Source: a virus. Taken from it: a stretch of 50,159 bases of DNA. The notes under the pieces are model-generated. The model searched no databases, was not told where the DNA came from, and saw only the letters and a list, made by a program, of their open reading frames with translations. The translations under genes and the position numbers were made by a program. This document shows positions 2,743-50,107 of this stretch, piece by piece; the stretch's first letter is position 1, and every line of letters starts with the position of its first letter. The stretch lies in IMG/VR virus record IMGVR_UViG_3300045988_109785. One strand, 5' to 3'.

Positions 2743-3075
2743 ATGGCCAGCAAACCAGAGACCAAGGTGGTCAAGAAAATCCTGGAGATGCTGAAGGACT
2801 CCTTCCCAGGCTTTTACTTCAAAACCCACGGAGGCCTGTACCAGAGAATAGGACTACCCGACATCCTGGGAGTCCACAGGGGGCGGTTCATAGGGATTGA
2901 GGTGAAGTGTCCTGGGAAGGAGGACACCCTCACCAAGAACCAGGAAAAGACCCTCAGGCTCATACGACTCTACGGTGGAGTGGGATTTATGTCAACCTCC
3001 CCCGAAGATACAAAATCTAAACTAAGAAAGGAAATGACACCATGGCCAATACCAAAGAAAAGCTCCAGACCCTGA
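2743..3075 (+). CDS. VRR-NUC domain nuclease
   Basis: PD-(D/E)XK core GLPDILGV...GRFIGIEVKCPG...LTKNQ in a 110-aa protein. Confidence 0.7.
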   Translation: MASKPETKVVKKILEMLKDSFPGFYFKTHGGLYQRIGLPDILGVHRGRFIGIEVKCPGKEDTLTKNQEKTLRLIRLYGGVGFMSTSPEDTKSKLRKEMTPWPIPKKSSRP

Positions 3076-3605
3076 AGACCCTGCACTCTCAGCAGCAGGC
3101 CCTCTACGCTGAGAAGAACGAGAAATACGACGATGCCTTCGCCAAGACCTACGCTGAGTACGGCCCCACTGTGGCCATCATCCGACTGGAGGACAAGCTC
3201 AACCGGGTCAAGGCCCTGGTCGCTGCCGGCCTGGATGGCTCCAATGGGGAGTCCCTGGTGGACACCCTGATGGACATGGCCTGCTACGCCAACATGTTCC
3301 TCATCGAGCTGGGGGCCAAGGCTTCCACAGTGGAGGAGAAGCCCAAGAAGAAGCGGAACCGGAAGAACAAGGAAGAGGCTGAGACTGGGGCTGCTGAGAA
3401 GGGTCCTCTGGATGACCTGACCAAGAAACAGCTGGTGGAGCTCATCTCCCAGCTGGGCGGCACCGCTTCCAAGAAGGACAACCGGAAGAAGCTGATGGGT
3501 ATCATCGAAGGCTTCCCCAAGGCCAAGGTGGCTGTGGCCATCACTTCCCTGAAGGCCCAGTCTGAGTCTGTGGAGGACGAGGATGATGGGGATGAAGAGG
3601 AATAA
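3042..3605 (+). CDS. DUF1599-like helical protein with a C-terminal HeH motif
   Basis: YAEKNEKYDDAF...YGP..AIIRLEDKLNRVKAL matches my memory of the DUF1599 pattern (which I believe is catalogued as nucleotide modification associated domain 1). C-terminal LTKKQLVELISQLGG...KKLMGIIE. Confidence 0.5.
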   Translation: MANTKEKLQTLKTLHSQQQALYAEKNEKYDDAFAKTYAEYGPTVAIIRLEDKLNRVKALVAAGLDGSNGESLVDTLMDMACYANMFLIELGAKASTVEEKPKKKRNRKNKEEAETGAAEKGPLDDLTKKQLVELISQLGGTASKKDNRKKLMGIIEGFPKAKVAVAITSLKAQSESVEDEDDGDEEE

Positions 3606-30905: not shown

Positions 30906-31076
30906 TCAGTCTCCTTTCATGTACTCCCAGTCCTTCAGAGAGATCATCTTCTCCCGGACGAGCTTATCAATCACTTTTCCAATGTTGTCCCCATACTTCA
31001 TCATCTTGGCCAGTTTATGCAAATTCCACAGAGTCTGGGGAGTGACCCTGCATGCCAGCCTTCTTAGACTCTTCAT
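30906..31076 (-). CDS. ribbon-helix-helix (Arc/CopG-like) DNA-binding protein
   Basis: ATG 31076 in an ATGA overlap with the deaminase stop; 56 aa; RVTPQTLWNLHKLAKMM...IGKVIDKLV fits a beta-alpha-alpha pattern. Confidence 0.5.
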   Translation of the reverse strand: MKSLRRLACRVTPQTLWNLHKLAKMMKYGDNIGKVIDKLVREKMISLKDWEYMKGD

Positions 31077-31627
31077 GTCATAACCTCCTGGTCGGTAGCA
31101 TCCAGATGAACCACAGTGATGCCGGCAGACTTCAGCAGGTCCAGTCCGGTAGTGTCCCTGTACTCCTTCATGTAGACCAGCTTCTTGATGCCACTGTTGA
31201 CAATCACCTTGGCACAATTGATGCAGGGAGACATGGTGCAGTACATGGTGCAGCCTTCCACAGCCACCCCAGCCCGGGCAGCAAAGGCGATGGCGTTAGT
31301 CTCAGCATGCAGACTCCTGGTACAGCCAGGGCCCATGCACTCAGGATGTCCCTCCTCCCCTCCAGTATACTCAGGCCAGGTTTCAGGTTCATTCGGGTAC
31401 ACCTTAAGCCAGTCTACCTCTCCCACAGGATGAAGGGGAGTAGGTGGGACCTCCTTGGAGGAGCAGGCAGGCATACCAGAGACAGGGCCGTTATACCCCA
31501 TGGAGACCACACGTCCCTCCTTGACAATCACAGCACCAACCTGAGACCTCAGGCAGGTAGACCGTTGAGCCACCACCTGACAAATCTTGATGAACATTTC
31601 ATCCCTTGAAATTCGTTCCCGTATCAC
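31073..31627 (-). CDS. dCMP deaminase (zinc-dependent cytidine/deoxycytidylate deaminase fold)
   Basis: HAETNAI and PCINCAK motifs; RSTC...VGAVIV. GTG 31627 has SD GAAAGGAG at 7 nt; ATG 31654 is an alternative start. A ~40-aa insert lies between GYNG and HAE. Confidence 0.8.
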   Translation of the reverse strand: MIRERISRDEMFIKICQVVAQRSTCLRSQVGAVIVKEGRVVSMGYNGPVSGMPACSSKEVPPTPLHPVGEVDWLKVYPNEPETWPEYTGGEEGHPECMGPGCTRSLHAETNAIAFAARAGVAVEGCTMYCTMSPCINCAKVIVNSGIKKLVYMKEYRDTTGLDLLKSAGITVVHLDATDQEVMT

Positions 31628-31695
31628 CTTGATACTCCTTTCTTGATATGACATTATGTAATCATATTTCTCTTGATTTATACAGTGTGTATATA

Positions 31696-31725
31696 TGTGG
31701 ATAACTTTGTGGAAAATGTGGATAA
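31696..31725 (-). promoter_or_regulatory. cluster of three DnaA-box-like 9-mers (TTATCCACA x2, TTTTCCACA x1)
   Basis: Plus-strand tgtggataa 31696..31704, tgtggaaaa 31708..31716 and tgtggataa 31717..31725, all in the same orientation. Confidence 0.6.
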
Positions 31726-31853
31726 CCGGGGCACCCCGTATAGGGCCGCTGGGAGCCCGCTGGGGCCATTTTACCCCCTGGGGGGTATAAACATACCAGT
31801 GACCCCCTAAAAAGCCCCCCAGGCTGGCCCTGTGCTCCCCGTGGCACCCATAT

Positions 31854-32309
31854 TTATCCCAGGCCCCCAGGGGGAGTGAATTCAGGGGGTAATTTCGTGC
31901 CTCGTACGAGTTTGACCTTATCCAACCAGACCCACAGGCAATGGCCCTCTTGACCCTCCCGGCCATGGGTCCTCAGGTTCAGGGCATGGCCGTCCAGTAC
32001 CACATCCTTGAACTCCACACCTGGGATATACCAGCCACCCACCTGGCAGGCAGCAACAATCCTCCCTTGACCTACACCCTCCACATAGACCTCCTTATCC
32101 TCCCACAGATGGAGAGGACAGGCAGGGTAGTAGCCAGGCACCTTACTCCGGACATCCCAGCAGTTCCACCCAGGGCCACAGGCCTCAGCCATTGGACTCA
32201 GTGCCTCCAGCTTCTCCCGGTACAGGTTCATCAGGTTGGCAATCTCCAGCATGACTCTCAGTGGGTTCTCCAGCTTCCTGGCCTCCGGTATTCCTCCTTG
32301 AACGTTCAT
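31854..32309 (-). CDS. hypothetical protein
   Basis: 151 aa; SD GGAAGGAGGT. Confidence 0.55.
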   Translation of the reverse strand: MNVQGGIPEARKLENPLRVMLEIANLMNLYREKLEALSPMAEACGPGWNCWDVRSKVPGYYPACPLHLWEDKEVYVEGVGQGRIVAACQVGGWYIPGVEFKDVVLDGHALNLRTHGREGQEGHCLWVWLDKVKLVRGTKLPPEFTPPGGLG

Positions 32310-36967: not shown

Positions 36968-37864
36968 ATGACTGACATCAGAACTGCTACCTGGACCAAC
37001 ATCGGCTACGACATCAAGAAGGCCAAGACTGTGGAAGAAGCCCTGAAGCTGTCCCACCTGGACTACACTGTGGAGAAGGTCCCTGTCTTCCTGGAGGACG
37101 GAACCTCCATCCCCGGGGCCTTCTGCACCAAGAAGGAAGCCTCCACCCAGACCTTCGGAGTGGTCGGCAAGGAGTTCTCCATCATCCAGAACATCGAAGG
37201 CTTCGACTTCATCAACGCTCTGGTCGGAGAGGGCCTGACCTTCCTCAAGGCTGGCGAGAACAAGAAGATGGTCTGGATTATCGGCCAGCTTCCCACCATC
37301 GACATCCTGGGCGACAAGGTTACTCCCCATGTCATCTTCCAGAACTCCCACAGTGGCAACACCACCCTGAAGGCCACCATCGCTCCCCTCCGCATCATCT
37401 GCCAGAACCAGTTCAACATCACCTTCCGGAAGGCTGATAACAAGATTAGCCTCCGGCATACCTCTTCCATCAAGGAACGTCTCCACACTGCTGAGACTGT
37501 CCTGGCTCAGAACTCCATCTACCTGGACGCCTTCAAGGCCAAGGCTGGGGAGATGGCTTCCCACAAGGTCTCCAAGAAGACTGTGGACTCCTTCCTGGAC
37601 GGAATCTTCGAAATCAAGCCTGAGTTCAACCCCACTCAGACCAAGAGAGTAGAGGAGAAGAGGGCCCGCTTCCTGGCTGCTTACCAGGCTGAGGACAACC
37701 AGAACTTCATCGGCACTCAGTGGGGCCTGGTCAACGCCTACACCGACTACGTGACCCACAGGGAGCTCAAGAAGGACACTCCCACTGCTCTGGAGAACCA
37801 CTTCATCAAGACCACTCTGAAGGGCTCGATGAACGAATTCATCCACCAGGTCTCTAAGCTCTAA
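36968..37864 (+). CDS. DUF932 / phage-plasmid TIGR03299-like protein
   Basis: 298 aa; N-terminal WTNIGYDI...TVEEALKLSHLDYTVEK, a central NSHSGNTTLKATIAPLRIICQNQ, and a C-terminal NAYTDYVTHRE pattern. Confidence 0.6.
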   Translation: MTDIRTATWTNIGYDIKKAKTVEEALKLSHLDYTVEKVPVFLEDGTSIPGAFCTKKEASTQTFGVVGKEFSIIQNIEGFDFINALVGEGLTFLKAGENKKMVWIIGQLPTIDILGDKVTPHVIFQNSHSGNTTLKATIAPLRIICQNQFNITFRKADNKISLRHTSSIKERLHTAETVLAQNSIYLDAFKAKAGEMASHKVSKKTVDSFLDGIFEIKPEFNPTQTKRVEEKRARFLAAYQAEDNQNFIGTQWGLVNAYTDYVTHRELKKDTPTALENHFIKTTLKGSMNEFIHQVSKL

Positions 37865-37874
37865 GCTGTGGAAA

Positions 37875-37909
37875 GGGATGGGGGCTTCGGCCCCCTCCCT
37901 AAAATTTTC
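37875..37909 (+). terminator. Rho-independent terminator
   Basis: GGGATGGGGGC-ttcg-GCCCCCTCCC followed by taaaatttt. Confidence 0.7.
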
Positions 37910-37921
37910 TCTTCGAACCCA

Positions 37922-37950
37922 TTTACATTCTCTCGGCCATCTCTTATAAT
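37922..37950 (+). promoter_or_regulatory. Conserved early promoter ACCCATTTACA-N17-TATAAT
   Basis: tttaca 37922..37927; tataat 37945..37950. Confidence 0.7.
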
Positions 37951-37980
37951 AGGGGTATAAACAAAAGGGAGGTCCACCTC

Positions 37981-38334
37981 ATGACTAAGCTGGAAATTTA
38001 CGACTACATTCTTCACTACGATATTCGGTCTCTGGCCGACCGACTGGAGAAGCTTCTGTCTGAGGACCGCATCACTGGTGGGGCTTGCTACTACGTGTAC
38101 AATCCCTACGAGTTCTACCCCCTAAAGCAGGTCCTGGAGCTCTCCGCTAAGGCCTGCAAGTCCAAGAACTATTTCCGGTGCATCAAGAGAGTGGATAGCA
38201 TCACCTTCAACATCTGGCTGGAAGGCTTCAAGGAGGACATCGCTAGAACCGAAGCTTTCCTGGCTGAGCAGGAGGCCCTTCCCTTCGAACAGTCCCAGAA
38301 ACAAGTGCTCATTCAGAAAGGAGAACTCAAATGA
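37981..38334 (+). CDS. hypothetical protein
   Basis: 117 aa; SD AAGGGAGGTCC. Confidence 0.55.
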   Translation: MTKLEIYDYILHYDIRSLADRLEKLLSEDRITGGACYYVYNPYEFYPLKQVLELSAKACKSKNYFRCIKRVDSITFNIWLEGFKEDIARTEAFLAEQEALPFEQSQKQVLIQKGELK

Positions 38335-38549
38335 ACAACTCTACCAACAACAAGGTCGTATCCATCTACTCCCAGGAGGATGACTTCAAGGTCCTCCATC
38401 AGATGCTTAACTCCCCTCAGCAGGAGGCTCGGAGACAGGCCCGTCGGAAGCAAAACCGAATCTATCGCCTTCGGGTTAAGGCCCTCCACATCGGAGGCAT
38501 CTTCTCTGCCGGAATGGCCTTCATGTACCTGCTCATTCACCTGGTCTAA
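38331..38549 (+). CDS. small protein with a C-terminal TM segment
   Basis: 72 aa; ATGA coupling; IGGIFSAGMAFMYLLIHLV. Confidence 0.5.
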   Translation: MNNSTNNKVVSIYSQEDDFKVLHQMLNSPQQEARRQARRKQNRIYRLRVKALHIGGIFSAGMAFMYLLIHLV

Positions 38550-38561
38550 GGAGGTGCTACC

Positions 38562-39407
38562 ATGAAACCTGAGCTTAATCGCAACAGGGTCCTCGGCTCC
38601 CTGCTTGGCTTTGCCATCGGGGATGCCATGGGGGCAACCACAGAGTTCATGTCCCAGAGGGAAATCTACCAGAAGTACGGGGAGGTCAAGGACATCATCG
38701 GAGAAGGCTGGCTGAACCTCAAGCCCGGGGAGGTCACCGACGACACTCAGATGATGACCATCGTGGCCAAGGCCCGAATGAACAGCCTGGAGACCTTCAC
38801 CAGGGATTGCTGCACTGGCTTTGTGGACTGGCTCAGCGGGGGTCCTAAGGACGTAGGAGGGGCCTGTAAGGCCGCAATCCTCCAGGGGGGTAGGAAATCC
38901 CCGGATGAGTGGATGAGGCTCTCTATGGAGCGCCAGGAGGCCAACCAGCGGCTTGACCTGGGCAACGGGGCAGTGATGAGGGCTCTGTTCCTGGCCCTGA
39001 ATGATGAGCCCAACCTGGCAGTTCACCAGGGGCGCCTGACCCACAACAACCCCACTTCGGACAGGTACATCAGAGACTACTGCTACGCTGTCTACAGGGC
39101 TCTGTTCTTCCCAACCCTGTGGGCAGGGGACGAAGACCATCTGGAACTGATGGCACCCACAGGACACGTAGAGAACTCGGTGAACAACGCCATCTACTGG
39201 AGCTTCAACGCTTTGAACTTCAGGGATGCCATCATCGGTCCGGTCAACCATGGGGGAGATGCTGACACCATCGCTGCCTTGACTGGGGGGATAGCCGGAG
39301 CTCACTTCGGGGCTAACCACATTCCCAGGAAGTGGATAGAGGCTCTCGACCCCCATGTGGTCAAAGACCTCCAGGACATGGCCGACTGGCTCATGGAAAA
39401 CCAGTAA
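38562..39407 (+). CDS. ADP-ribosylglycohydrolase (ARH/DraG family)
   Basis: LGFAIGDAMGATTEF, GEVTDDTQM and GGDADTIAALTGGIAGAHFG are family hallmark motifs. Confidence 0.85.
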   Translation: MKPELNRNRVLGSLLGFAIGDAMGATTEFMSQREIYQKYGEVKDIIGEGWLNLKPGEVTDDTQMMTIVAKARMNSLETFTRDCCTGFVDWLSGGPKDVGGACKAAILQGGRKSPDEWMRLSMERQEANQRLDLGNGAVMRALFLALNDEPNLAVHQGRLTHNNPTSDRYIRDYCYAVYRALFFPTLWAGDEDHLELMAPTGHVENSVNNAIYWSFNALNFRDAIIGPVNHGGDADTIAALTGGIAGAHFGANHIPRKWIEALDPHVVKDLQDMADWLMENQ

Positions 39408-40523: not shown

Positions 40524-40961
40524 ATGAGCAAGAAACGTAAAATCCCAGTAAAGCCCAGTCTCATTCGAGGTACCCACTACCTTACCGAGGCCGGAGTGGA
40601 GGCTGATGAAATAAGGACTCTCATCCTCAGGAGAAGGCTGCAGGTCCTCGTTCATTCCTGCATCTACTATGTGTTCAACGAGAACATCATCCCTGACTCC
40701 ACATGGAGTGCTTGGGCGAGGGAGCTGGCTGAGCTTCAGGAGAAGTACCCTTCCATCGCTGCCCGAGTGGACTACGCCAAGGAGTTCCAAGGCTTTGATG
40801 GCAGTACTGGCTTCCACCTTCCTACCCGCAATCTTGAGATTATGGCCAAGGCTCAGTACCTCCTAAAAATCAGAAAGGAGAAAGCCAATGTTAGAGACTC
40901 TGGACACCAAGCTCATCGAGCAGACACTCCAAGTACTGTCGTTCGAATCTGCTTTCCATGA
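40524..40961 (+). CDS. hypothetical protein
   Basis: 145 aa. IYYVFNENIIPDSTWSAWARELAELQEKYP is reminiscent of the LigA Ia-type helical motif. The 3' end overlaps the next gene by 74 nt. Confidence 0.5.
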   Translation: MSKKRKIPVKPSLIRGTHYLTEAGVEADEIRTLILRRRLQVLVHSCIYYVFNENIIPDSTWSAWARELAELQEKYPSIAARVDYAKEFQGFDGSTGFHLPTRNLEIMAKAQYLLKIRKEKANVRDSGHQAHRADTPSTVVRICFP

Positions 40962-41439
40962 CCCACACTGGAGGGAGTTCGTCGAGACAGCCTACAGGGT
41001 ATGTGTTCCTCTGGACTTCTACCTCATGCCTGCCAGTATGTCGGGGAAGCATCACCAGGGGTATGAGCTTGGAGTTGGGGGACTGGTGAGACACACCAAG
41101 GCGGCCATGATTGTGGCCAAGACCCTGTTCCCCCTGTACCACTATCAGGACCACGAGCAGGACCTTCTCATGGCTGCCTTGGCCCTGCACGACATTGCCA
41201 AGCCCAGCAAGACCCACCCTGTGGAAGTGAGACCCTTGCTTGAGCCCATCGAGAACGACTACTACAACGAGATTGAGAAGGTAGTCCCCCTCATCGAGAC
41301 CCATCATGGACAATGGGACTGCTTTGGCAAACTGCCCAGACCCAAGTCCTCCAAGCAGAACTTCGTCCATCTCTGCGACTACATCGCCTCTCGCAAGAAC
41401 ATTGCGATTGACATCAACTATCAGGAGGAGAACACATGA
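40888..41439 (+). CDS. HD-domain phosphohydrolase
   Basis: SGKHH...LVRH...ALHDIAKP...ETHHG pattern (H..HD..H). Confidence 0.7.
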   Translation: MLETLDTKLIEQTLQVLSFESAFHDPHWREFVETAYRVCVPLDFYLMPASMSGKHHQGYELGVGGLVRHTKAAMIVAKTLFPLYHYQDHEQDLLMAALALHDIAKPSKTHPVEVRPLLEPIENDYYNEIEKVVPLIETHHGQWDCFGKLPRPKSSKQNFVHLCDYIASRKNIAIDINYQEENT

Positions 41440-42104
41440 AAGTCATCCATCCCTATGTCAACCCCCAGATGCTCCCTCCCCGAAAGGTCCTGTATGGCCT
41501 TCTGGAGGCCGCAGGGAGAACCTGCTACCTGTCTGAGAGAGTGGAGGGGGACACCACAGAAAAGTTCATCCAGCGGCTCATGAAGCGCAAGCACTGGTCT
41601 GTTCTGGAGCACGGGAACCTCTCCGTTCGTATTGTCTGCGACCGTGGTGTAACCCATGAACTGGTCCGCCACAGAATCGCCTCCTACTCCCAGGAGAGCA
41701 CCCGGTACTGCAACTACTCCGGGGACAAGTTCGGTGGGGAGATTAAGGTCATTGACCTGGCTACTGGCTTCAAGTACGACCTGGACAATCCTCAGGACCG
41801 GGCCAAGTATGAGGAGTGGATGGCCGCTATGAAGGACGCGGAGAGGCACTACATGAAGATGCTGGAGCTGGGGGCTACTCCTCAGGAAGCCCGCTCTGTG
41901 CTGCCCACAAGCACCAAGACTGAGATTGTGGTCACGATGAACGTACGGGAGTGGAGACACTTCCTGGAGATGCGTTGGGTCGGTGTGGCAGGAACCCCCC
42001 ACCCTCAGATGCGGGAGATTGCCGAACAGGTCTATGACCTGCTGGCTCTGCACTATCCCATCCTCTTTGAGGACCTGAAGGGCTCTATCAAGAGAGCTCA
42101 GTAA
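41436..42104 (+). CDS. thyX: flavin-dependent thymidylate synthase ThyX
   Basis: ThyX signature RHRIASYSQESTRY. Confidence 0.85.
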   Translation: MKVIHPYVNPQMLPPRKVLYGLLEAAGRTCYLSERVEGDTTEKFIQRLMKRKHWSVLEHGNLSVRIVCDRGVTHELVRHRIASYSQESTRYCNYSGDKFGGEIKVIDLATGFKYDLDNPQDRAKYEEWMAAMKDAERHYMKMLELGATPQEARSVLPTSTKTEIVVTMNVREWRHFLEMRWVGVAGTPHPQMREIAEQVYDLLALHYPILFEDLKGSIKRAQ

Positions 42105-42870: not shown

Positions 42871-44835
42871 ATGAAAGAGACTATCAAGTTTCTGGTGCAA
42901 ATCTTCTCCCAACAGTGCGAACGTGGTGACTATGTTATCTTGGCAGCTAAGGACGGGAAGTTCTGGAAGGATGTCCCCATCAAGTATGGAAAGAACCTCA
43001 GTGAAAAGCTCAAGGAATTCTTCCAAGCATACCCACCTGAGAAATATGACCTGTACTGGTCTCCCATGCCCTACACTCAGCCCAAGAGACAAAACCGGTT
43101 CTCGGTAGATACCAAGTTCATGGCTCAGGACATAGATGAGTGTGAGGACCCCTCCTCCATCAGTCCCAAGCCAAGCTACATCTGGGAGAGCTCACCGAAC
43201 AAATACCAGGGCCTATGGGAGTTGGACCGGTACATCAACGAGCAGGAATACACTCCCCTCAACAAAGCCCTGGCTGCACACATAGGCTGCGATGACTGCT
43301 TCGACTTCGCCCATGTCTACCGTATCCCTGGCACCATCAACCACAAGTACAAGAACCTCCCCCCTGTGGGGCGGGTGAAGCCCACAAAGGCCCTTTATAA
43401 GCCGCGTGACATCCGGAAGGCTGTGGGGGGTGTAACTACTACCCCTAAGAAGGAAAAAGCCCCCAGCGCCTCTCCAGAGGCCTCTGAGCAGGATATGCTG
43501 GCTGAGCGGAGAATATACGCTAAGTACTCCATCCCCAAAAAGGTACGAGACACCCTGGCCCTCCAGTCCCTGAATGGGGTAGACCGGTCAAGTACTATCT
43601 GGTACGTAGAGAAGTCCCTGCATGAGCTGGGCATGACCCCACAGGAAATCATCCTGCTCATCAAGAACAGTGTCTTCAACAAGTACAGGGGGAGAGCTGA
43701 TGAGGACGCCCGACTCCACAGGGAGCTGGAGAAAATCATCGGAGACTCTATCCCTGACCCTGAGGACTCGGCAGCAGGAGCCCTGACTACCTCCACCTAT
43801 GGAGAGGTCATGGGTAACTGCAACACCTTCGAAGGATGGCTGGTACGTGGCTTCTGGGGCCGGAGGTCTCATGGAATTGTGGCCGGCATGCCTAAGTGCT
43901 TCAAGTCCACTCTGGTCCATGACCTCATCATCTCTGTAGCCAGTGGCACCAAGTTCCTTGGTCGCTTCCCTGTGGAAGAGCCCGGTCCTGTTCTGGTCAT
44001 TCAGAACGAGAACGCTGACTATATCATGAAGGACCGTACGGAGAAGATTATCCTCGACCGTGGACTGGTAGGAGAGGCTCACAGAATAAACCGGAGACAT
44101 GTTCAAGTGGAGTTCCCCCCGGACCTGCCCATCACCTTCATCAATCAGCAGGGCTTCACCCTCAGCAATGAGGACCACAGAAGACAGATTGAACTCCTTG
44201 TTCAGGAACTCAAACCCGTGCTTGTGGTATTCGACCCCCTGTACCTTATGTTCGAGGGAGACCTCAATTCATCCAAAGACTTGAACCCCGTGTTGAACTG
44301 GTTGCTCAGTCTCAAGACCGACTACCATACCAGTGTCTTGGTTGTCCATCACTACAACAAGGGAAGTCAGCAGGGGCAGCTTAAGGGCGGTGCCCGAATG
44401 GCTGGCTCGGTCATGTTATATGGTTGGGTTGAGTCTGCCTGGTACATCACCAAAGTGGAGGAGGAAGAGGAGCCCATTCCTAACCAGGCCGTAGACTATG
44501 CCGAAGCCTCAGGAAGTGCCACTGTGACACTCTCCAGGGAGTTTCGTATGGCCGGTCATTTCTCTGACTTGGATGTCCACTTCGACATGGGAGAGATTGG
44601 CAATCCACAGTACAACGTGACCCTGGGAGGCCCAGGCTCTGGACATGTAACCATCAAGACTCTTGAGGGAGAGATACTCAACTTCCTGGCCAACTCCACA
44701 GTACCCCTCTCCAAGGGAACGATACAGGATAACCTGGGCGTTGAAAGCAAGGTCCTCAGTAAGGCCTTGAATGAACTGGTCAAATCCAAGAAAGTTGTTA
44801 CAATAAACGGTGGGTACACCATTTCCAAACGCTAA
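42871..44835 (+). CDS. primase-helicase fusion (RepB'-type primase N-terminus, RepA/AAA_25 RecA-fold helicase, C-terminal wHTH)
   Basis: N-terminus: MAQDIDE, PSYIWESSPNKYQGLWEL, VYRIPGTINHKY. Centre: Walker A GMPKCFKST, Walker B VLVVFDPL, VVHHYNKG. Confidence 0.7.
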   Translation: MKETIKFLVQIFSQQCERGDYVILAAKDGKFWKDVPIKYGKNLSEKLKEFFQAYPPEKYDLYWSPMPYTQPKRQNRFSVDTKFMAQDIDECEDPSSISPKPSYIWESSPNKYQGLWELDRYINEQEYTPLNKALAAHIGCDDCFDFAHVYRIPGTINHKYKNLPPVGRVKPTKALYKPRDIRKAVGGVTTTPKKEKAPSASPEASEQDMLAERRIYAKYSIPKKVRDTLALQSLNGVDRSSTIWYVEKSLHELGMTPQEIILLIKNSVFNKYRGRADEDARLHRELEKIIGDSIPDPEDSAAGALTTSTYGEVMGNCNTFEGWLVRGFWGRRSHGIVAGMPKCFKSTLVHDLIISVASGTKFLGRFPVEEPGPVLVIQNENADYIMKDRTEKIILDRGLVGEAHRINRRHVQVEFPPDLPITFINQQGFTLSNEDHRRQIELLVQELKPVLVVFDPLYLMFEGDLNSSKDLNPVLNWLLSLKTDYHTSVLVVHHYNKGSQQGQLKGGARMAGSVMLYGWVESAWYITKVEEEEEPIPNQAVDYAEASGSATVTLSREFRMAGHFSDLDVHFDMGEIGNPQYNVTLGGPGSGHVTIKTLEGEILNFLANSTVPLSKGTIQDNLGVESKVLSKALNELVKSKKVVTINGGYTISKR

Positions 44836-44883: not shown

Positions 44884-45504
44884 ATGATGATTTTTACTGG
44901 CATGGACAACTCGGGCAAGACCACGATAGTCCAGAAGACTGCTAAGAAGCTTGGCCTTCCTGTGGTCAAGTCCCTGGGTCCGGCCCACCCTGTGGACGAG
45001 AAGCACATCTGGCTGCTTGACCAGATGACCCGGGAGAAGGCTTTCCCTGGCTCTGTTATCTTCGACCGCTTCCTCCCCTTTGAGGAGATGGTCTATGGCA
45101 AGGTCCTGCGGGGAGACCCCATCTATTCCCTGGATGACCCCTACATGAAGTCCCTCAAGGACTTGAACCCCACCATCGTCTACACCCGTCCTCACTCCTC
45201 TACCATCTTCAACTGGGATGGCCGGGAGCAGATGGACGGAGTGATTGAGCAGAAGGAGAAGCTCCTGGCTGCCTGGGATGACCTGATGTGGGGCCTGATG
45301 GCCAGAGGCTGGGACGTCCAGGTCTATGACTACGAGGCTGAGAATGAGGGCGAACAGGTCTCCGGCCTGGAAGAGTTCGCCAAGTTTCTGAACGACCTGG
45401 TCAAGACCACCTATCCCCCCCATCCGAAGGATGGTCAGCCCCTGCAGTGGAAGAAGCATAAGCCCCTGGAGAACATCGACGAAGATGAGGAGGACGAAGA
45501 CTAA
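44884..45504 (+). CDS. P-loop (deoxy)nucleotide kinase, thymidylate-kinase-like
   Basis: GMDNSGKTT P-loop and a DRFLPFEEMVYG (DRY-like) motif; acidic C-terminus. Confidence 0.6.
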   Translation: MMIFTGMDNSGKTTIVQKTAKKLGLPVVKSLGPAHPVDEKHIWLLDQMTREKAFPGSVIFDRFLPFEEMVYGKVLRGDPIYSLDDPYMKSLKDLNPTIVYTRPHSSTIFNWDGREQMDGVIEQKEKLLAAWDDLMWGLMARGWDVQVYDYEAENEGEQVSGLEEFAKFLNDLVKTTYPPHPKDGQPLQWKKHKPLENIDEDEEDED

Positions 45505-46175
45505 TGAACATCAATCATGCAACTGTGGAAGAGGTCACTGGCGACAAGCTTCAGGCCATCTTCACCCGCCAGAAGTCCCTGATGGACAAATACCACGACA
45601 TCGAGCTTCGGTCTGGGCTGCTTCAGACTGAGGACTGCCCGGTCAACCTGGATGACAAGAGAGGCCAGGCCCGTATCAAGGACTTCTCCTGGAGAGTCAC
45701 CGAGGAACTGGGAGAGGCCCTGGACGCCCGGTCCAATAAGGACCACTACCAGGAGGAGCTCATCGATGGACTTCACTTCCTGACCGAGCTCACCATCCTG
45801 GCTGGAAAGGACTATGACTCCATCCTCCCCCAGGGGACTCCGCTCTATGACAGTGACCATCTGGAGGACCTGGTGGAGAATGCCAAAGAGGTAATCTCCC
45901 GAAGAGCTTCCCAGGGCGAGAATGGGTATAGCCTGGAGTACTGGGTCTCCAAGTTCATCGAGAATCTGGGCATGATGTGCAACTGCCTGAAGAACAAGCC
46001 CTGGAAGCAGTCCATGATGAAGACCGACCATGAGGCCTTCTACAGCCGACTGTCTGAGGTCTGGGTCATCTATATCACTATCCTGGTGGTCTCCGGAATG
46101 AATGCCCAGGACATCGCCAACATCTACCTGAAGAAGTCTCAGGTAAACCAGTTCCGGCAGAGAAGCAACTACTAA
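45504..46175 (+). CDS. all-alpha NTP pyrophosphohydrolase (dimeric dUTPase / MazG-like)
   Basis: WRVTEELGEALDA...EELIDGLHFLTEL...KNKPWKQ pattern. Confidence 0.55.
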   Translation: MNINHATVEEVTGDKLQAIFTRQKSLMDKYHDIELRSGLLQTEDCPVNLDDKRGQARIKDFSWRVTEELGEALDARSNKDHYQEELIDGLHFLTELTILAGKDYDSILPQGTPLYDSDHLEDLVENAKEVISRRASQGENGYSLEYWVSKFIENLGMMCNCLKNKPWKQSMMKTDHEAFYSRLSEVWVIYITILVVSGMNAQDIANIYLKKSQVNQFRQRSNY

Positions 46176-46187
46176 GGAGAAGGCCCC

Positions 46188-46931
46188 ATGCTGAAGAAAC
46201 ACTACAAGGACTTCAGTGAGGCCTACTTCGGGGTCAATCGGGAAATCCTGCTGCATCCACAGCATCTGGACTACCTGGAGAACACCAGGGGAGTCGTAGA
46301 AGACCTCTTCCTCACTCTCGACAGCATTGACTGTGAGAAGGTTGACTTAGCTCCCCTGGGGTACTCCCCCCGGAAGTGGGGACACCTGGTCAAGACCTAC
46401 ATTGACCTGGATAAACTCAGGGAGTTCTTCCACCTCTGTGAAATCTCAAAGGGCATCTCCATTGGGTATGACTTCAAGAGAAAGGATACGGGCAATGGGT
46501 CCTGCATGAGGGAAGTTATCCTCACCCGCCACAGCAGGAAGAAGCCCTGGACCAAGGCCACAGTTATCTGGAGGGCCACAGAGCTACAGAAGAGATGGGC
46601 AGCTGACCTCATCCTTCTGCACCACCTGCTCTCCAAGGTCCCCAACTCCCAGTTCACCGAGATTGAGTTCTTCATCACAAGTGCTTACCAGTCAGGCATG
46701 TATGTCATTCCTTTGGTGGAGCCAGTGTTCGGAGTGAAGATGAAGGACTTGGACCCTACAGCTCATCCTTACTGGAAGATTATCCGGTACCGGAATGACA
46801 AGTACTATCAGGAGGACTCCCCCAGGCAGAAGCTCAGTCCTGCTCAAAGAATGCAGGATGTGGCCAATGCCCTCCGGGAAGGGAAAACCTTCGAACCTAT
46901 CACCTACAAAGACTTTGAATTGGAGGTATGA
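46188..46931 (+). CDS. divergent ThyA-fold protein (paralogue of the next gene)
   Basis: GSCMREV...ATVIWRATELQKRWAADLILLHHLL aligns loosely with VPCSLGY...LHYVMRSCDFVTHFRNDVYLAIKFL in 46935..47666. Confidence 0.4.
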   Translation: MLKKHYKDFSEAYFGVNREILLHPQHLDYLENTRGVVEDLFLTLDSIDCEKVDLAPLGYSPRKWGHLVKTYIDLDKLREFFHLCEISKGISIGYDFKRKDTGNGSCMREVILTRHSRKKPWTKATVIWRATELQKRWAADLILLHHLLSKVPNSQFTEIEFFITSAYQSGMYVIPLVEPVFGVKMKDLDPTAHPYWKIIRYRNDKYYQEDSPRQKLSPAQRMQDVANALREGKTFEPITYKDFELEV

Positions 46932-46934
46932 CAA

Positions 46935-47666
46935 ATGAGAATCTACACCAACGCCCAGGAGATGGTCGAGGAGGTCAAGAGGGACCTGGCCGAGATGGGA
47001 ATTGTGGTACGGCCTGCGACCATGCAGGACAAGTATGTCAAGGGCAATCCTGACTACGAGACCAAGGAGCTGCAGAACTACAGCTACTGCCTGCTTAATG
47101 CCCGGAGCCAGGACATCCCGGGAGTCATTCAGCCCTGGGCTGATGCTGAGTTCAAGGAGCGGGTCACTGACCCCTGGGAAAGGGACTGGGAAGGGAAGAG
47201 AACCCTGTTCCAAGTTCCTGAGTTCATCAACCCCGGTGAGGCCTGGAAGCTCCGGGAGGAGGTATGGTCTGAGTATATGCACGACGGGAAGCTGGCCTAC
47301 ACCTACAACGAGCTCCTGTGGAACAATGACCAGCTGACCAAAATCATGAACCGCCTGAAGGAGGACCCGGACTCCCGGCAGCTGTGGATTAGCCTTTGGA
47401 ACCCGGACAAGGACCCCGACTTCCTGGGGGGTGTCTCCCGAGTTCCCTGCTCCCTGGGCTATGGTCTCCAGGTTCGGGATGGCAAGCTCAACCTGCACTA
47501 CGTGATGAGGTCCTGTGACTTCGTGACCCATTTCCGGAACGATGTCTATCTGGCCATCAAGTTCCTGGAGTGGGTAGCTGAGAAGACTGGCTATCCTGTG
47601 GGAGACTTTACCCACACCATGTTCTCCTGCCACGTATACAACAAAGACATCCAGGGGGTATTCTGA
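46935..47666 (+). CDS. ThyA-family pyrimidine-5 methylase/hydroxymethylase (thymidylate-synthase fold)
   Basis: Aligns by eye to E. coli ThyA: LKEDPDSRQLWISLWNP / LKNDPDSRRIIVSAWN; VPC (catalytic Cys); DGKLNLHYVMRSCD / DGKLSCQLYQRSCD; GDFTHTMFSCHVY / GDFVWTGGDTHLY. Confidence 0.75.
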   Translation: MRIYTNAQEMVEEVKRDLAEMGIVVRPATMQDKYVKGNPDYETKELQNYSYCLLNARSQDIPGVIQPWADAEFKERVTDPWERDWEGKRTLFQVPEFINPGEAWKLREEVWSEYMHDGKLAYTYNELLWNNDQLTKIMNRLKEDPDSRQLWISLWNPDKDPDFLGGVSRVPCSLGYGLQVRDGKLNLHYVMRSCDFVTHFRNDVYLAIKFLEWVAEKTGYPVGDFTHTMFSCHVYNKDIQGVF

Positions 47667-50107
47667 TGGCCTGTCATGACTGCAACCTTTGTGCCTTCTC
47701 CAGTCCTACGTGTATCTGGGGAGCCGGCCCCCCCAAGGCCAAGGTCATGGTAGTCAACAGCTATGCCACAGAACAAGATGAACAGGAGGGGGCGGCAGTC
47801 ATGCCGTCCTCCCTTGTTGAAAGACTGAGGGCCATAGGACTTGACCCTGAGAAGGTCTACTATACCAACGCCATTAAGTGTGCCTGCCCAAGAGGAACCA
47901 AGTACAAAGTGGGGGACATCAAGAAGTGCAAGCAGCACCTGGACAAGGAGATTGCTGCAGTCCAACCTACCTACGTTCTGGTCCTGGGTGCTCAGGCTCT
48001 GAAGGCCACAGTAGATGGCTCCATCACTGAACTCAACGGAGTGATGGTGGAGAAGGATGGGATTAAGTACATGCCCTCCTACAGTCCTGGCATAGTTTAC
48101 CGTGACCCCGGGAAGGCCCCCTTTGTGGAGAAAGCCATGAACAACTTCAAGGCCATGATGGAAGGAAGCCTGGAGGGACTTCCAGAACTGGACATCAGGC
48201 TCATCACTAATATGAGGGAACTCAAAAGGGCCTTTCACCATCTGAAGGACAACAACTATCTGCACCTGAGCTATGATATTGAGACCACTGGACTGGTGAG
48301 GTTTGAGGATGAAGTGAACCTGTTTGGCTTTGGCAATGACCAGGTCCAATATATCATCCCGCTGGAGGCCCGCTACAGCCCGCTGAAGGGCGCCAGGCTG
48401 GCCCAAAGGAAACTCATTAGGACATGTGTGAACTGGCTAAATAGGAACGCTAAAGCCCTCGTGGCGGGCAATGGAAAGTTCGATGACCTGTTCCTGAAGT
48501 ATCGCTTTGGGGTAAAGCCCAACATCACCTTCGACGTAGTGCTGGCCTCCCACATACTCAATGAGAATACTCCCAACGGTGTGAAGGAGAATGCAGTGCT
48601 GGAGTGCAATGCTCCGGAGTGGGATGTGGACAAGGACCTCAAGACAGGCAAGTACAAGACCCGGGAGGAGTATCAGGAATACTTGACCTACCTGGGGTAC
48701 GACATCTACTATGAGTATAAGCTCTATAGAGTGTTCCACAAGAAGCTCAAGCAGGACCGAGCCCTGATGAAGCTCTTCTACCATCTCTACATGCCCGGCA
48801 TCATTTCCTACGAGACTGTGGAAGAACACGGGGTGTTCATTTATCCACAGCAGTTCAAAAAGGTCCGAAAGCACTTGGAGTCTGAGAGAGAAGCCATTGA
48901 GAAGCAACTCCTGAAGATGGCCAAGCACGAGGTCAACTGGAACTCCCCGGCCCAGATACAGAAGCTGCTGTATGAAGAGCTCAAGCTTCCAGTGATTGAG
49001 ACCACGGAGTCTGGCTCTCCCTCCACAAGTGAGGCTACCCTGATGCAGCTGAGGGACAAACACCCCATTGTAGAACTCATCCTGAAGTACCGGGGTGTCA
49101 ACATTCAAATCTCTCACTTCATCGATGGCTGGATTAACCGAATGTGGGGGAGAAGACTGTTCCCCAACTTCAAGCTACATGGGACTGTCACGGGAAGAAC
49201 CTCCTGCACTGACCCCAACCTTCAGCAGGTACCTCGAGACCCCATCATCCGAAATCTGGTGGGAGCTCCGGAAGGCTGGTCTGTGGTGGAGATTGACTAC
49301 TCCCAGGCAGAGCTCCGCATAGCAGCCATCATGTCTGGGGATGAGACCATGAAGCGTATCTACCAGACCGGGGGAGACATCCACACTCACACGTACGAGA
49401 TGATAACCGGAGAGAAGGTCTCCGATGACAAGTACATCAAGAAGGAACAACGCAAAAAGGCGAAGGCTGTAAACTTCGGATTTGTCTACGGCATGGGCTG
49501 GAGGAAGTTCAAGATTTACGCTCGAGACAATTATGGGGTGGACCTCACAGACAAAGAGGCTGAGCAGTGGAGAGAGAGATTCTTCCAGGCCTACCACTCC
49601 CTTCCCAAGTGGCACTCCAAGCAGAGAAGAATTGTCCAGTCTATGGGCCAGGTTAGGTCTCCCATTGGAAGACTCCGGAGGCTCCCTGACATTTACTCCA
49701 CAGACAAGTCAAAGAAAGCTGAAGCTGAGAGACAGAGTATCAACTCCCCAGTGCAGGGCTTTGGCTCTGACCTGACTATCTTGGGAATGTCTGAGATTAT
49801 GGGCAATGCCCAGTACTATGACCCTGACTACGTACTGGACAAGGACAAGTTCTTTGTCATAGGTACAGTCCACGATGCTACCCTGTTCGAAGTGAGAAAC
49901 GACTACCTGATGGAGTTTTGTCCCCGGGCCAAGCATATCTTGGAACACCCAAAGGCTCTTGAGGATGTATTCCACTTTGACACTGATGTGCCGATTGTGG
50001 CTGATGTGGCAGTAGGCAAGTCTTGGGGTGCAGGCATAGAGCTCCACATGGAAGAGGGTGGAGACTGGCAAGACCAACTCAAGACTTACCTGGATGGCCT
50101 GAAATAA
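47666..50107 (+). CDS. UDG-family-4-like domain fused to a family A DNA polymerase with 3'-5' exonuclease (SPO1-type)
   Basis: N-terminus: CHDCNLC...NAIKCACP (Fe-S UDG-like). Exo motifs: YDIETTG, NGKFDD, YLGYDIYY. Pol motif A DYSQAELRIAA, motif B KAKAVNFGFVYGM, motif C TVHDATLFE. Confidence 0.85.
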   Translation: MACHDCNLCAFSSPTCIWGAGPPKAKVMVVNSYATEQDEQEGAAVMPSSLVERLRAIGLDPEKVYYTNAIKCACPRGTKYKVGDIKKCKQHLDKEIAAVQPTYVLVLGAQALKATVDGSITELNGVMVEKDGIKYMPSYSPGIVYRDPGKAPFVEKAMNNFKAMMEGSLEGLPELDIRLITNMRELKRAFHHLKDNNYLHLSYDIETTGLVRFEDEVNLFGFGNDQVQYIIPLEARYSPLKGARLAQRKLIRTCVNWLNRNAKALVAGNGKFDDLFLKYRFGVKPNITFDVVLASHILNENTPNGVKENAVLECNAPEWDVDKDLKTGKYKTREEYQEYLTYLGYDIYYEYKLYRVFHKKLKQDRALMKLFYHLYMPGIISYETVEEHGVFIYPQQFKKVRKHLESEREAIEKQLLKMAKHEVNWNSPAQIQKLLYEELKLPVIETTESGSPSTSEATLMQLRDKHPIVELILKYRGVNIQISHFIDGWINRMWGRRLFPNFKLHGTVTGRTSCTDPNLQQVPRDPIIRNLVGAPEGWSVVEIDYSQAELRIAAIMSGDETMKRIYQTGGDIHTHTYEMITGEKVSDDKYIKKEQRKKAKAVNFGFVYGMGWRKFKIYARDNYGVDLTDKEAEQWRERFFQAYHSLPKWHSKQRRIVQSMGQVRSPIGRLRRLPDIYSTDKSKKAEAERQSINSPVQGFGSDLTILGMSEIMGNAQYYDPDYVLDKDKFFVIGTVHDATLFEVRNDYLMEFCPRAKHILEHPKALEDVFHFDTDVPIVADVAVGKSWGAGIELHMEEGGDWQDQLKTYLDGLK

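Follow-up and report, generated by a model that had tools for sequence, protein, structure and literature searches.

The 50,159-nucleotide stretch of viral DNA analyzed here (IMG/VR record IMGVR_UViG_3300045988_109785; termed here the window) is an essentially complete phage genome of about 50 kb, whose plus strand carries two adjacent genes, ORF1 (open reading frame 1; 46188-46931; 247 amino acids (aa)) and ORF2 (46935-47666; 243 aa), that encode proteins related to thymidylate synthase (ThyA). The reading favored here, held with moderate confidence, is that ORF1 and ORF2 are two ThyA-fold parts of a conserved cassette that most likely converts deoxycytidine monophosphate (dCMP) into a C5-modified pyrimidine deoxynucleoside monophosphate (dNMP) for use by the phage polymerase, rather than into deoxythymidine monophosphate (dTMP). 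Both proteins keep the nucleophilic cysteine, the phosphate-binding Arg166 equivalent and the cytosine-selecting aspartate at the position of Asn177 (Escherichia coli ThyA numbering is used here for positions of the fold), and the dTMP-synthase role in the window's lineage is held by a separate ThyX or canonical ThyA. The best-supported reading of the module as a whole is by analogy: it would resemble the gp56/gp42/gp1/cd set of phage T4, with two ThyA-fold components instead of one. dCMP would then be the substrate, ORF1 would serve either as a second catalyst or as a partner subunit, and the product, bearing a substituent at C5, would presumably enter the DNA.

ORF2 matches the Pfam family Thymidylat_synt (PF00303) with an E-value of 1.3e-19 and a score of 70.9 bits (gathering cut-off 24.3), its residues 109-241 aligning with positions 78-217 of the 266-position profile; about 50 C-terminal positions of that profile are missing from the protein. 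The motifs that an initial annotation of the window had recognized in ORF2 are all present, namely VPC (Cys172), DPDSRQ (Arg148, Gln149), RSCD (Arg192, Ser193, Asp195), FRND (Asp203) and HVY (His233, Tyr235), and the second arginine of the canonical DSRR motif is indeed glutamine (Gln149), as was then observed. In terms of E. coli ThyA, Tyr124 corresponds to Tyr94; Arg148 and Gln149 to Arg126 and Arg127; Arg169 to Leu143; Cys172 to Cys146; Ser173 to His147; Arg192, Ser193 and Asp195 to Arg166, Ser167 and Asp169; His199 to Gly173; Asp203 to Asn177; and His233 and Tyr235 to His207 and Tyr209. The ThyA core (the equivalents of Cys146, Arg166, Ser167 and Asp169) is kept in full. Neither a bulky hydrophobic residue at position 143 (Arg169 in ORF2) nor the full C-terminal segment is present: only 8 residues follow the Tyr209 equivalent, as against 55 in E. 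coli ThyA.

The initial annotation had left it ambiguous whether asparagine or aspartate occupies position 177, the answer seeming to depend on whether the alignment was gapped. This ambiguity disappears upon proper alignment: HMMER alignments with AfhB (a flavin-dependent enzyme considered below) and with ThyAs from the PDB, MAFFT alignment with E. coli ThyA and T4 gp42, and comparison of a profile of the paired ThyA clade with the PDB all run without a gap between Arg166 and position 177 and set Asp203 at E. coli Asn177. The aligned stretch reads RSNDVVFGFRND in T4 gp42 and RSCDFVTHFRND in ORF2, with FRND identical in the two; in T4 numbering, which was checked, the last aspartate of the gp42 stretch is Asp179 and its cysteine is Cys148. 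Both of these T4 residues have been studied by mutagenesis (reference list of PMC8670742). The N177D substitution turns ThyA toward dCMP, and metagenomic contigs with cytosine modification are enriched in Asp177 homologues (PMC13326640; PMC8670742). Because Asp203 occupies position 177, and because the FRND motif is shared with T4 gp42, ORF2 is, to judge from its sequence, of the cytosine type and not a conventional methylase of deoxyuridine monophosphate (dUMP).

Nor is ORF2 the phage's dTMP synthase. The actual one is ThyX, a flavin-dependent thymidylate synthase encoded on the plus strand at 41436-42104 (Pfam Thy1, 2.4e-48; NCBIfam thyX equivalog, 142 bits versus a cut-off of 87.9). In one IMG/VR relative (L010) the ThyX slot holds instead a canonical ThyA with Asn177, Leu143 and a full C-terminus ending in PVAI, and an 83-kb phage (L017) encodes beside the pair a canonical ThyA, likewise full-length and with Asn177 and Leu143. 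ORF2 itself lies below every NCBIfam thymidylate-synthase equivalog cut-off: its best score is 69.2 bits (TIGR03283, cut-off 174.55), and its other matches reach 18-59 bits versus cut-offs of 108-576. Its best solved relative is AfhB (9iqu/9iqc), whether judged by sequence (phmmer, 3.7e-14), by clade profile or by fold (Foldseek); the profile of the paired clade scores AfhB at 84.8 bits versus 67.7 bits for the best canonical ThyA.

The departures of ORF2 from canonical ThyA are shared by all ThyA homologues that have a neighbor belonging to the ORF1 family (termed here ORF1fam). In each of these Arg126 and Asp169 are kept, Arg127 is replaced by Gln or Lys, Leu143 by Arg, His147 by Ser or Thr, Gly173 by His and Asn177 by Asp, and only 8-19 residues follow Tyr209. 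Arginine at position 143 occurs in 19 of the 19 paired homologues tabulated (ORF2 included), and the clade signature--Arg143, His173, Gln/Lys127 and a short tail--was seen only in ThyAs with an ORF1fam neighbor. The unpaired Asp177 enzymes T4 gp42 and BF486P2_00032 of a Bacteroides phage have Asp143, Gly173 and Arg127, and aspartate is found at 143 in T4 gp42 and in both homologues of Bacteroides phage BF486P2. In ThyA, Arg127 is donated across the dimer interface, and the C-terminal segment closes the active site. Positions 143 and 173 lie within 6 Å of the C5 of the bound nucleotide (PMC13326640). Given this proximity to C5 and the cross-interface role of Arg127, the sequence changes in the paired clade suggest both an altered C5 chemistry and an altered arrangement of subunits.

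ORF1 is far more divergent from ThyA and has no Pfam or NCBIfam match; PF00303 is matched by none of 40 members of its family, and its single PHROG match is to PHROG 34294 ('unknown function'; 1.9e-39). Its AlphaFold2 model, built with 17 homologues, is confident (predicted local distance difference test score (pLDDT) 90.7; predicted template modeling score 0.89), and in a Foldseek search of the PDB all 21 matches at E ≤ 1e-3 are to the ThyA superfamily, the best having an E-value of 9.6e-7 and a template modeling (TM) score of about 0.5. The order of these matches is AfhB (9iqu, the best), then the CMP hydroxymethylase MilA, T4 dCMP hydroxymethylase and, after these, canonical ThyAs; in BFVD, uncharacterized phage proteins come first (including gp48 of Pseudomonas phage PMBT14), followed by viral thymidylate synthases and dCMP hydroxymethylases. 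The model thus gives ORF1 a ThyA fold, and the tandem of ThyA-fold proteins that the initial annotation had proposed is real, with ORF2 identified by PF00303 and ORF1 by a predicted structure that matches only the ThyA superfamily in the PDB. The motifs noted earlier in ORF1 are likewise present: GNGSC (Cys106, codon 46503-46505 on the plus strand), WRATEL (Arg129, 46572-46574; Glu132, 46581-46583) and ADLILLHHLL (Asp140, 46605-46607). The spacing of Arg129, Glu132 (Arg+3) and Asp140 (Arg+11) is that of ThyA Arg166, Asp169 and Asn177, which places Asp140 at the Asn177 position, and a predicted strand opens at Cys106, as one does at ThyA Cys146. On the model, ORF1 appears to lack most of the ThyA helical insert, which includes the folate contacts Glu58, Trp80 and Trp83, and to keep the nucleotide-binding core.

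An exhaustive profile search places ORF1 in a large family: it found 278 clusters (at 50% identity) with E ≤ 1e-3, of which 99 reach E ≤ 1e-10. The clustered proteins are about 220-350 aa long, come from contigs of phage size and have neither a Pfam domain nor a name. The conserved core consists of Tyr59, Lys63, Trp64, Tyr71, Cys106, Arg129, Glu132, Arg136 and Asp140. Among the 40 members examined, which range down to about 20% identity, Lys63, Tyr71, Cys106 and Asp140 are invariant, and conservation is at least 90% at Tyr59, Leu67 and Arg129. A further 21 orthologues and paralogues show no variation at Cys106, Arg129 or Asp140, and position 132 is Glu or Asp except in mycobacteriophage Muddy. 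This conservation, combined with the ThyA spacing, is far beyond chance. ORF1 does diverge fastest of the cassette genes (33% identity, versus 67% for ORF2, in comparison with a Clostridium perfringens phage), and the initial annotation had called it apparently degenerate. That description does not hold: in close relatives the ratio of nonsynonymous to synonymous substitution rates (dN/dS) is 0.03-0.13 for ORF1 and 0.04-0.15 for ORF2, and phages of 60-83 kb from the gut have two ORF1fam paralogues, one long and one short, with Cys, Arg and Asp kept in both. Family-wide retention of these residues, purifying selection and duplication argue that ORF1 is not a decayed copy; it looks like an enzyme or an obligate, active-site-bearing partner. 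A role as an aGPT-pyrophosphorylase or other thymidine-hypermodification enzyme was also considered for ORF1 and was rejected for want of a Pfam match. A second Asp177 ThyA homologue of the Bacteroides phage, BF486P2_00027 (L027, 979-1785), matches the ThyA profile at 1.3e-17 and, weakly, the ORF1fam profile at 1.9e-4; because it matches both, it may be an evolutionary intermediate of the two families.

At every locus examined a gene for a short ThyA homologue (240-290 aa) directly follows an ORF1fam gene. The pair occurs in IMG/VR relatives of the window (L003-L011) and in contigs L017-L023, all from metagenomes; in C. perfringens phage P21 and nine of its relatives; in MT121960 and MT836181 from the human gut; in MW202455 from a freshwater spring; and in phages PMBT14 of Pseudomonas (gp48/gp47), Opt-155 of Serratia (gp50/gp49), Cleo of Gordonia (gp42/gp41) and Muddy of Mycobacterium (gp47/gp46). 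A tblastn search with ORF1fam found about 85 actinophage records and 17 records of proteobacterial phages, and the gene is annotated as 'hypothetical' in about 115 cultured phage genomes; in MW202455 the ORF1 homologue had already been labeled 'pyrimidine hmase synthase' by an automatic pipeline. The search for related loci with alignment A1 yielded only close relatives in IMG/VR and none in the genome contig collection. The order of the cassette is constant: kinase, dUTPase_2-type pyrophosphatase, ORF1fam, short ThyA, usually a dCMP deaminase, and DNA polymerase A (PolA). In Muddy, PMBT14, Opt-155, Cleo and MW202455 the deaminase comes directly after the short ThyA; in Muddy it is gp45, a protein annotated as hypothetical. 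The pair had been described initially as unlike any characterized system, and this assessment stands: none with the pair was found, and the searchable literature holds no description of it. The 'two thymidylate synthases' of KlebPhaCol are not such a pair, being an ordinary T4-like td and gp42.

Seven gut phage contigs of 60-83 kb (L002, L016, L017 and L019-L022) have three or four ThyA-fold genes in a row: the long ORF1fam paralogue, sometimes a canonical ThyA or ThyX, the short ORF1fam paralogue and the short ThyA. Several of these contigs also have inteins in their PolA, helicase or RecA genes.

Within the window, ORF1 and ORF2 are separated by a stop codon (TGA) and one further codon (…ELEV*QMRIY…) and share a reading frame; the Shine-Dalgarno sequence of ORF2 (GGAGG) lies inside the 3' end of ORF1, and the two genes are translationally coupled. 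The shared frame recurs in the close relatives L003-L008 and L010. Programmed read-through, which would fuse ORF1 to ORF2, is nevertheless unlikely, since the frame is not shared in L011, L023 and others, the genes of L011 and L023 overlapping in different frames.

Among ThyA-fold enzymes of known function, T4 gp42 (dCMP hydroxymethylase; PDB 1B5D, 6A9A; 246 aa) resembles ORF2 in its fold, its shortness, its catalytic cysteine, its equivalents of Arg166, Ser167 and Asp169, the FRND helix motif and the aspartate at the Asn177 position; moreover, both belong to gene sets that include an all-alpha nucleoside triphosphate (NTP) pyrophosphatase, a dNMP kinase and a dCMP deaminase. It differs in having Asp at the Leu143 position, Gly173, both arginines of DSRR and 28 residues after Tyr209, where ORF2 has Arg143, His173, DSRQ and 8 residues, and in having no ORF1fam neighbor. 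AfhB (phage HY126), RB69 gp48 and DLP3 gp80 are flavin-dependent 5-hydroxy-dCMP synthases (PDB 9IQU, 9IQC, 9IR2; PMC13326640). AfhB, like ORF2, has Asp177 and a C-terminus that ends a few residues after H-x-Y/F, and the alignment with ORF2 reaches to within 3 residues of the AfhB end; enzymes of this type have Asn169 and both DSRR arginines, however, where ORF2 has Asp169, Gln127 and Arg143, and they act together with arabinosyl- or hexosyl-transferase clusters, none of which is present in the window. E. coli ThyA (PDB 2TSC and others) shares with ORF2 the fold and the core of Cys146, Arg166, Ser167, Asp169, His207 and Tyr209, and with ORF1 the equivalents of Cys146, Arg166 and Asp169 (as Glu), but has Asn177, Leu143, Arg127 and Gly173 and ends in a segment of about 55 residues that is missing from ORF2. 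ThyA is, furthermore, an obligate homodimer, whereas here two different ThyA-fold genes are always paired. Finally, MilA (PDB 5JNH, 5B6D), the second-best structural match of the ORF1 model, shares the ThyA fold and is cytosine-specific; it belongs, by contrast, to a bacterial antibiotic pathway, is about 318 aa long and has Asp143 (PMC13326640), a ribonucleotide substrate and no paired paralogue.

A mechanism consistent with the favored conversion of dCMP into a C5-modified dNMP would run as follows. The pyrophosphatase would supply the dNMP; Cys172 of ORF2 would then attack C6, Asp203 would protonate N3, and a one-carbon or other group would be added at C5. Because Leu143 is replaced by Arg and the C-terminal lid is missing, this group would not be a plain methyl, and hydroxymethyl is the default guess. 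ORF1 might perform a second Cys-C6 step that needs no cofactor, acting on the same nucleotide or on its product, or might be an active-site-bearing partner subunit of ORF2, in which the trans-acting Arg127 is replaced. The kinase would re-phosphorylate the product, and the dCMP deaminase would either feed dUMP to ThyX or deaminate the modified dCMP. It is also possible, and put forward only tentatively, that ORF1fam and the short ThyA with Arg143, His173 and Asp177 constitute an unrecognized two-component (perhaps heteromeric) pyrimidine-C5 system, whose product is a cytosine derivative as yet undescribed among DNA precursors; by one such route, ORF2 would install the C5 group and one or two ORF1fam paralogues would exchange or elaborate it through folate-free Cys-C6 chemistry.

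Several observations weigh against a C5-modifying cassette. The window has no recognizable gene for a glycosyl- or other group-transferase acting on a modified base; the literature searched yielded no report of modified DNA in the cassette-bearing Muddy, Gordonia, C. perfringens, Serratia or Pseudomonas phages, many of the cassette-bearing phages being handled routinely; and ORF2 fits neither of the published product signatures (Asp/Glu143 for hydroxymethyl, Asn169 for hydroxyl). The homology of ORF1 to ThyA rests on a predicted structure, and its profile-profile (hhalign) matches to ThyA are weak (26% probability, E-value 7e-4, with alignment A3; 5%, E-value 7.6e-3, with A6), though both have the same register, aligning Cys106 with Cys172, Arg129 with Arg192, Glu132 with Asp195 and Asp140 with Asp203 of ORF2. 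The AlphaFold2 model of ORF2 is poor (pLDDT 60, from homologues at least 82% identical), so that its Foldseek matches serve only as a consistency check. The pyrophosphatase of the window could serve simply as its dUTPase; gut phages of 60-83 kb, however, have a trimeric dUTPase beside the dUTPase_2-like enzyme, which makes it unlikely that the latter is only a dUTPase.

The lack of reported modification would be explained if the cassette were instead an alternative route to dTMP that leaves the DNA unmodified: ORF2, with ORF1 as its partner, would convert dCMP to 5-methyl-dCMP, the cassette deaminase would convert this to dTMP, and the 'thymidylate kinase' would carry it onward. Such a route suits Asp177 and the near-constant presence of a dCMP deaminase (which the window has too), and annotators have consistently read the cassette as a supply of dTTP. 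It is nevertheless rather unlikely, as Leu143, which is thought to exclude water and so to allow the hydride transfer that yields a methyl product (PMC13326640), is Arg in ORF2; as the ThyA C-terminal segment is missing; as the route would be redundant in a lineage that already has ThyX or a canonical ThyA together with a deaminase; and as it leaves ORF1 without a role. Less probable again is that ORF2 is a flavin-dependent dCMP 5-hydroxylase of the AfhB/RB69 gp48 kind, making 5-hydroxy-dCMP with ORF1 as an accessory. In sequence, profile and fold AfhB is the solved protein nearest to ORF2, it is also the best structural match of ORF1, and Asp177 and an early C-terminus are common to AfhB and ORF2; yet D169N, which is present in every verified 5-hydroxy-dCMP synthase and has worked as a predictor (Lee et al. 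2026), is missing, all paired ThyAs keeping Asp169. Position 143, moreover, is Arg and not the Glu of RB69 gp48 and DLP3 gp80 (PMC13326640), and genes for arabinosyl- or hexosyl-transferases and for sugar nucleotides are missing from the window. Most improbable of all is the ordinary interpretation, with ORF2 as the phage's dUMP thymidylate synthase and ORF1 as a decayed, non-functional or purely structural duplicate. The PF00303 match, the name 'thymidylate synthase' given to the orthologues in all public annotations and the rapid divergence of ORF1 relative to every other cassette gene would fit it. It conflicts with Asp177, Arg143 and the missing C-terminus of ORF2, with equivalog scores of at most 69 bits versus cut-offs of 108-576, with the ThyX or canonical ThyA that is also encoded, and with an ORF1 whose Cys, Arg and Asp are invariant, which is under strong purifying selection and which has been kept over huge phylogenetic distances and even duplicated.

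The structural module of the window, on the minus strand, is of siphovirus type, and the plus strand carries a module for replication and nucleotide metabolism; contigs of 50-51 kb that are nearly identical to the window are present in gut and other metagenomes. ORF1 and ORF2 lie within a tightly packed plus-strand operon, the junctions of which are 1-nt overlaps or gaps of 3-12 nt. Its genes, as identified from Pfam and PHROG matches, include a primase-helicase (42871-44835) and a P-loop (d)NMP kinase (44884-45504; PHROG 761 at 3.5e-12 and weak P-loop Pfam matches), whose relatives are annotated as 'thymidylate kinase' and which is syntenic in C. perfringens phage P21, PMBT14, Opt-155, Muddy and Cleo. 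These are followed by an all-alpha NTP pyrophosphohydrolase of the dimeric-dUTPase/MazG type (45504-46175; Pfam dUTPase_2 at 6.8e-11; PHROG 12184, 'nucleotide pyrophosphohydrolase', at 1e-47), which lies directly upstream of ORF1fam in all loci examined and which presumably returns dUTP and/or dCTP to the monophosphate level. Within this gene, 44 nt at about 45986-46029 have 91% DNA identity to genes called 'dUTPase' in mycobacteriophages Muddy, FF47 and Maco; since the whole proteins are only about 30% identical, these nucleotides form a segment that codes for a strongly conserved motif. The operon ends with a gene (47666-50107) whose start overlaps the ORF2 stop by 1 nt and which encodes a fusion of a uracil-DNA-glycosylase (UDG) domain, a 3'-5' exonuclease and a family A DNA polymerase (Pfam UDG at 2e-13, DNA_pol_A_exo1 at 9.5e-8, DNA_pol_A at 1.3e-82). 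The same arrangement, PolA with an N-terminal domain of the uracil-DNA-glycosylase superfamily, appears in the Pfam listing for L023. The long minus-strand ORFs 45501-46265, 46692-47633 and 47591-48406 (254-313 aa) are not supported by homology, which lies with the plus-strand genes, and most likely just shadow these.

The dCMP deaminase homologue of the window (31073-31966, minus strand; Pfam dCMP_cyt_deam_1 at 7.8e-25) is homologous to Muddy gp45, PMBT14 gp46, Opt-155 gp48 and Cleo gp39, but is displaced from the cassette; in other phages it lies between the short ThyA and PolA. As its ORF is 297 aa long, the domain match covers only about residues 121-266, and the first 104 residues resemble non-coding read-through, its start is probably the internal Met at 31654. 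Upstream of the primase, the plus strand has three small nucleotide-related genes (40524-42104): the first encodes a stand-alone protein of 145 aa made up solely of the N-terminal NAD+-binding Ia domain of DNA ligase (Nlig-Ia, 5e-29), the second an HD-domain phosphohydrolase (40888-41439), and the third is ThyX. DNA-ligase domains reportedly form one of three domain hubs on cytosine-modified contigs in MetaGPA. A 187-aa protein at 3042-3605 (plus strand) matches PF07659 ('Nucleotide modification associated domain 1') below threshold, at 22.1 bits versus a cut-off of 25, and also matches PHROG 1485, which has no assigned function; its neighbors are a VRR-NUC-like gene and an SNF2 helicase. The early region at 36968-39407 (plus strand) encodes a DUF932 protein (1e-35) and an ADP-ribosylglycohydrolase (7e-44), which may serve in counter-defense and are seemingly unrelated to the ThyA-fold pair.

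To our knowledge, ThyA-fold enzymes are the entry point to nearly all known pre-replicative pyrimidine modifications in phage DNA--5-hydroxymethylcytosine, 5-hydroxymethyluracil, 5-methylcytosine and, since 2025-26, 5-hydroxycytosine--and each new ThyA active-site signature that we know of has so far marked a new chemistry. The superfamily and the general strategy are therefore familiar; ORF1fam, the paired ThyA clade with its signature and the obligate link between the two have, to judge from the searchable literature, not been described before. This analysis defines an unnamed family of ThyA-fold proteins and a ThyA clade, with a signature of its own, that always accompanies it. The system is directly testable, as well-studied phages carry the cassette, among them Muddy, which has been used in phage therapy. 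If ORF1fam and the short ThyA do form a two-component system, more than 100 cultured phages--the therapeutic mycobacteriophage Muddy, many Gordonia phages and C. perfringens phages among them--would harbor an unnoticed non-canonical base or nucleotide-pool trick. The outcome bears on annotation, the gene not being a 'thymidylate synthase'; on which restriction and type IV defenses these phages evade or trigger; and on how their DNA behaves in sequencing and engineering.

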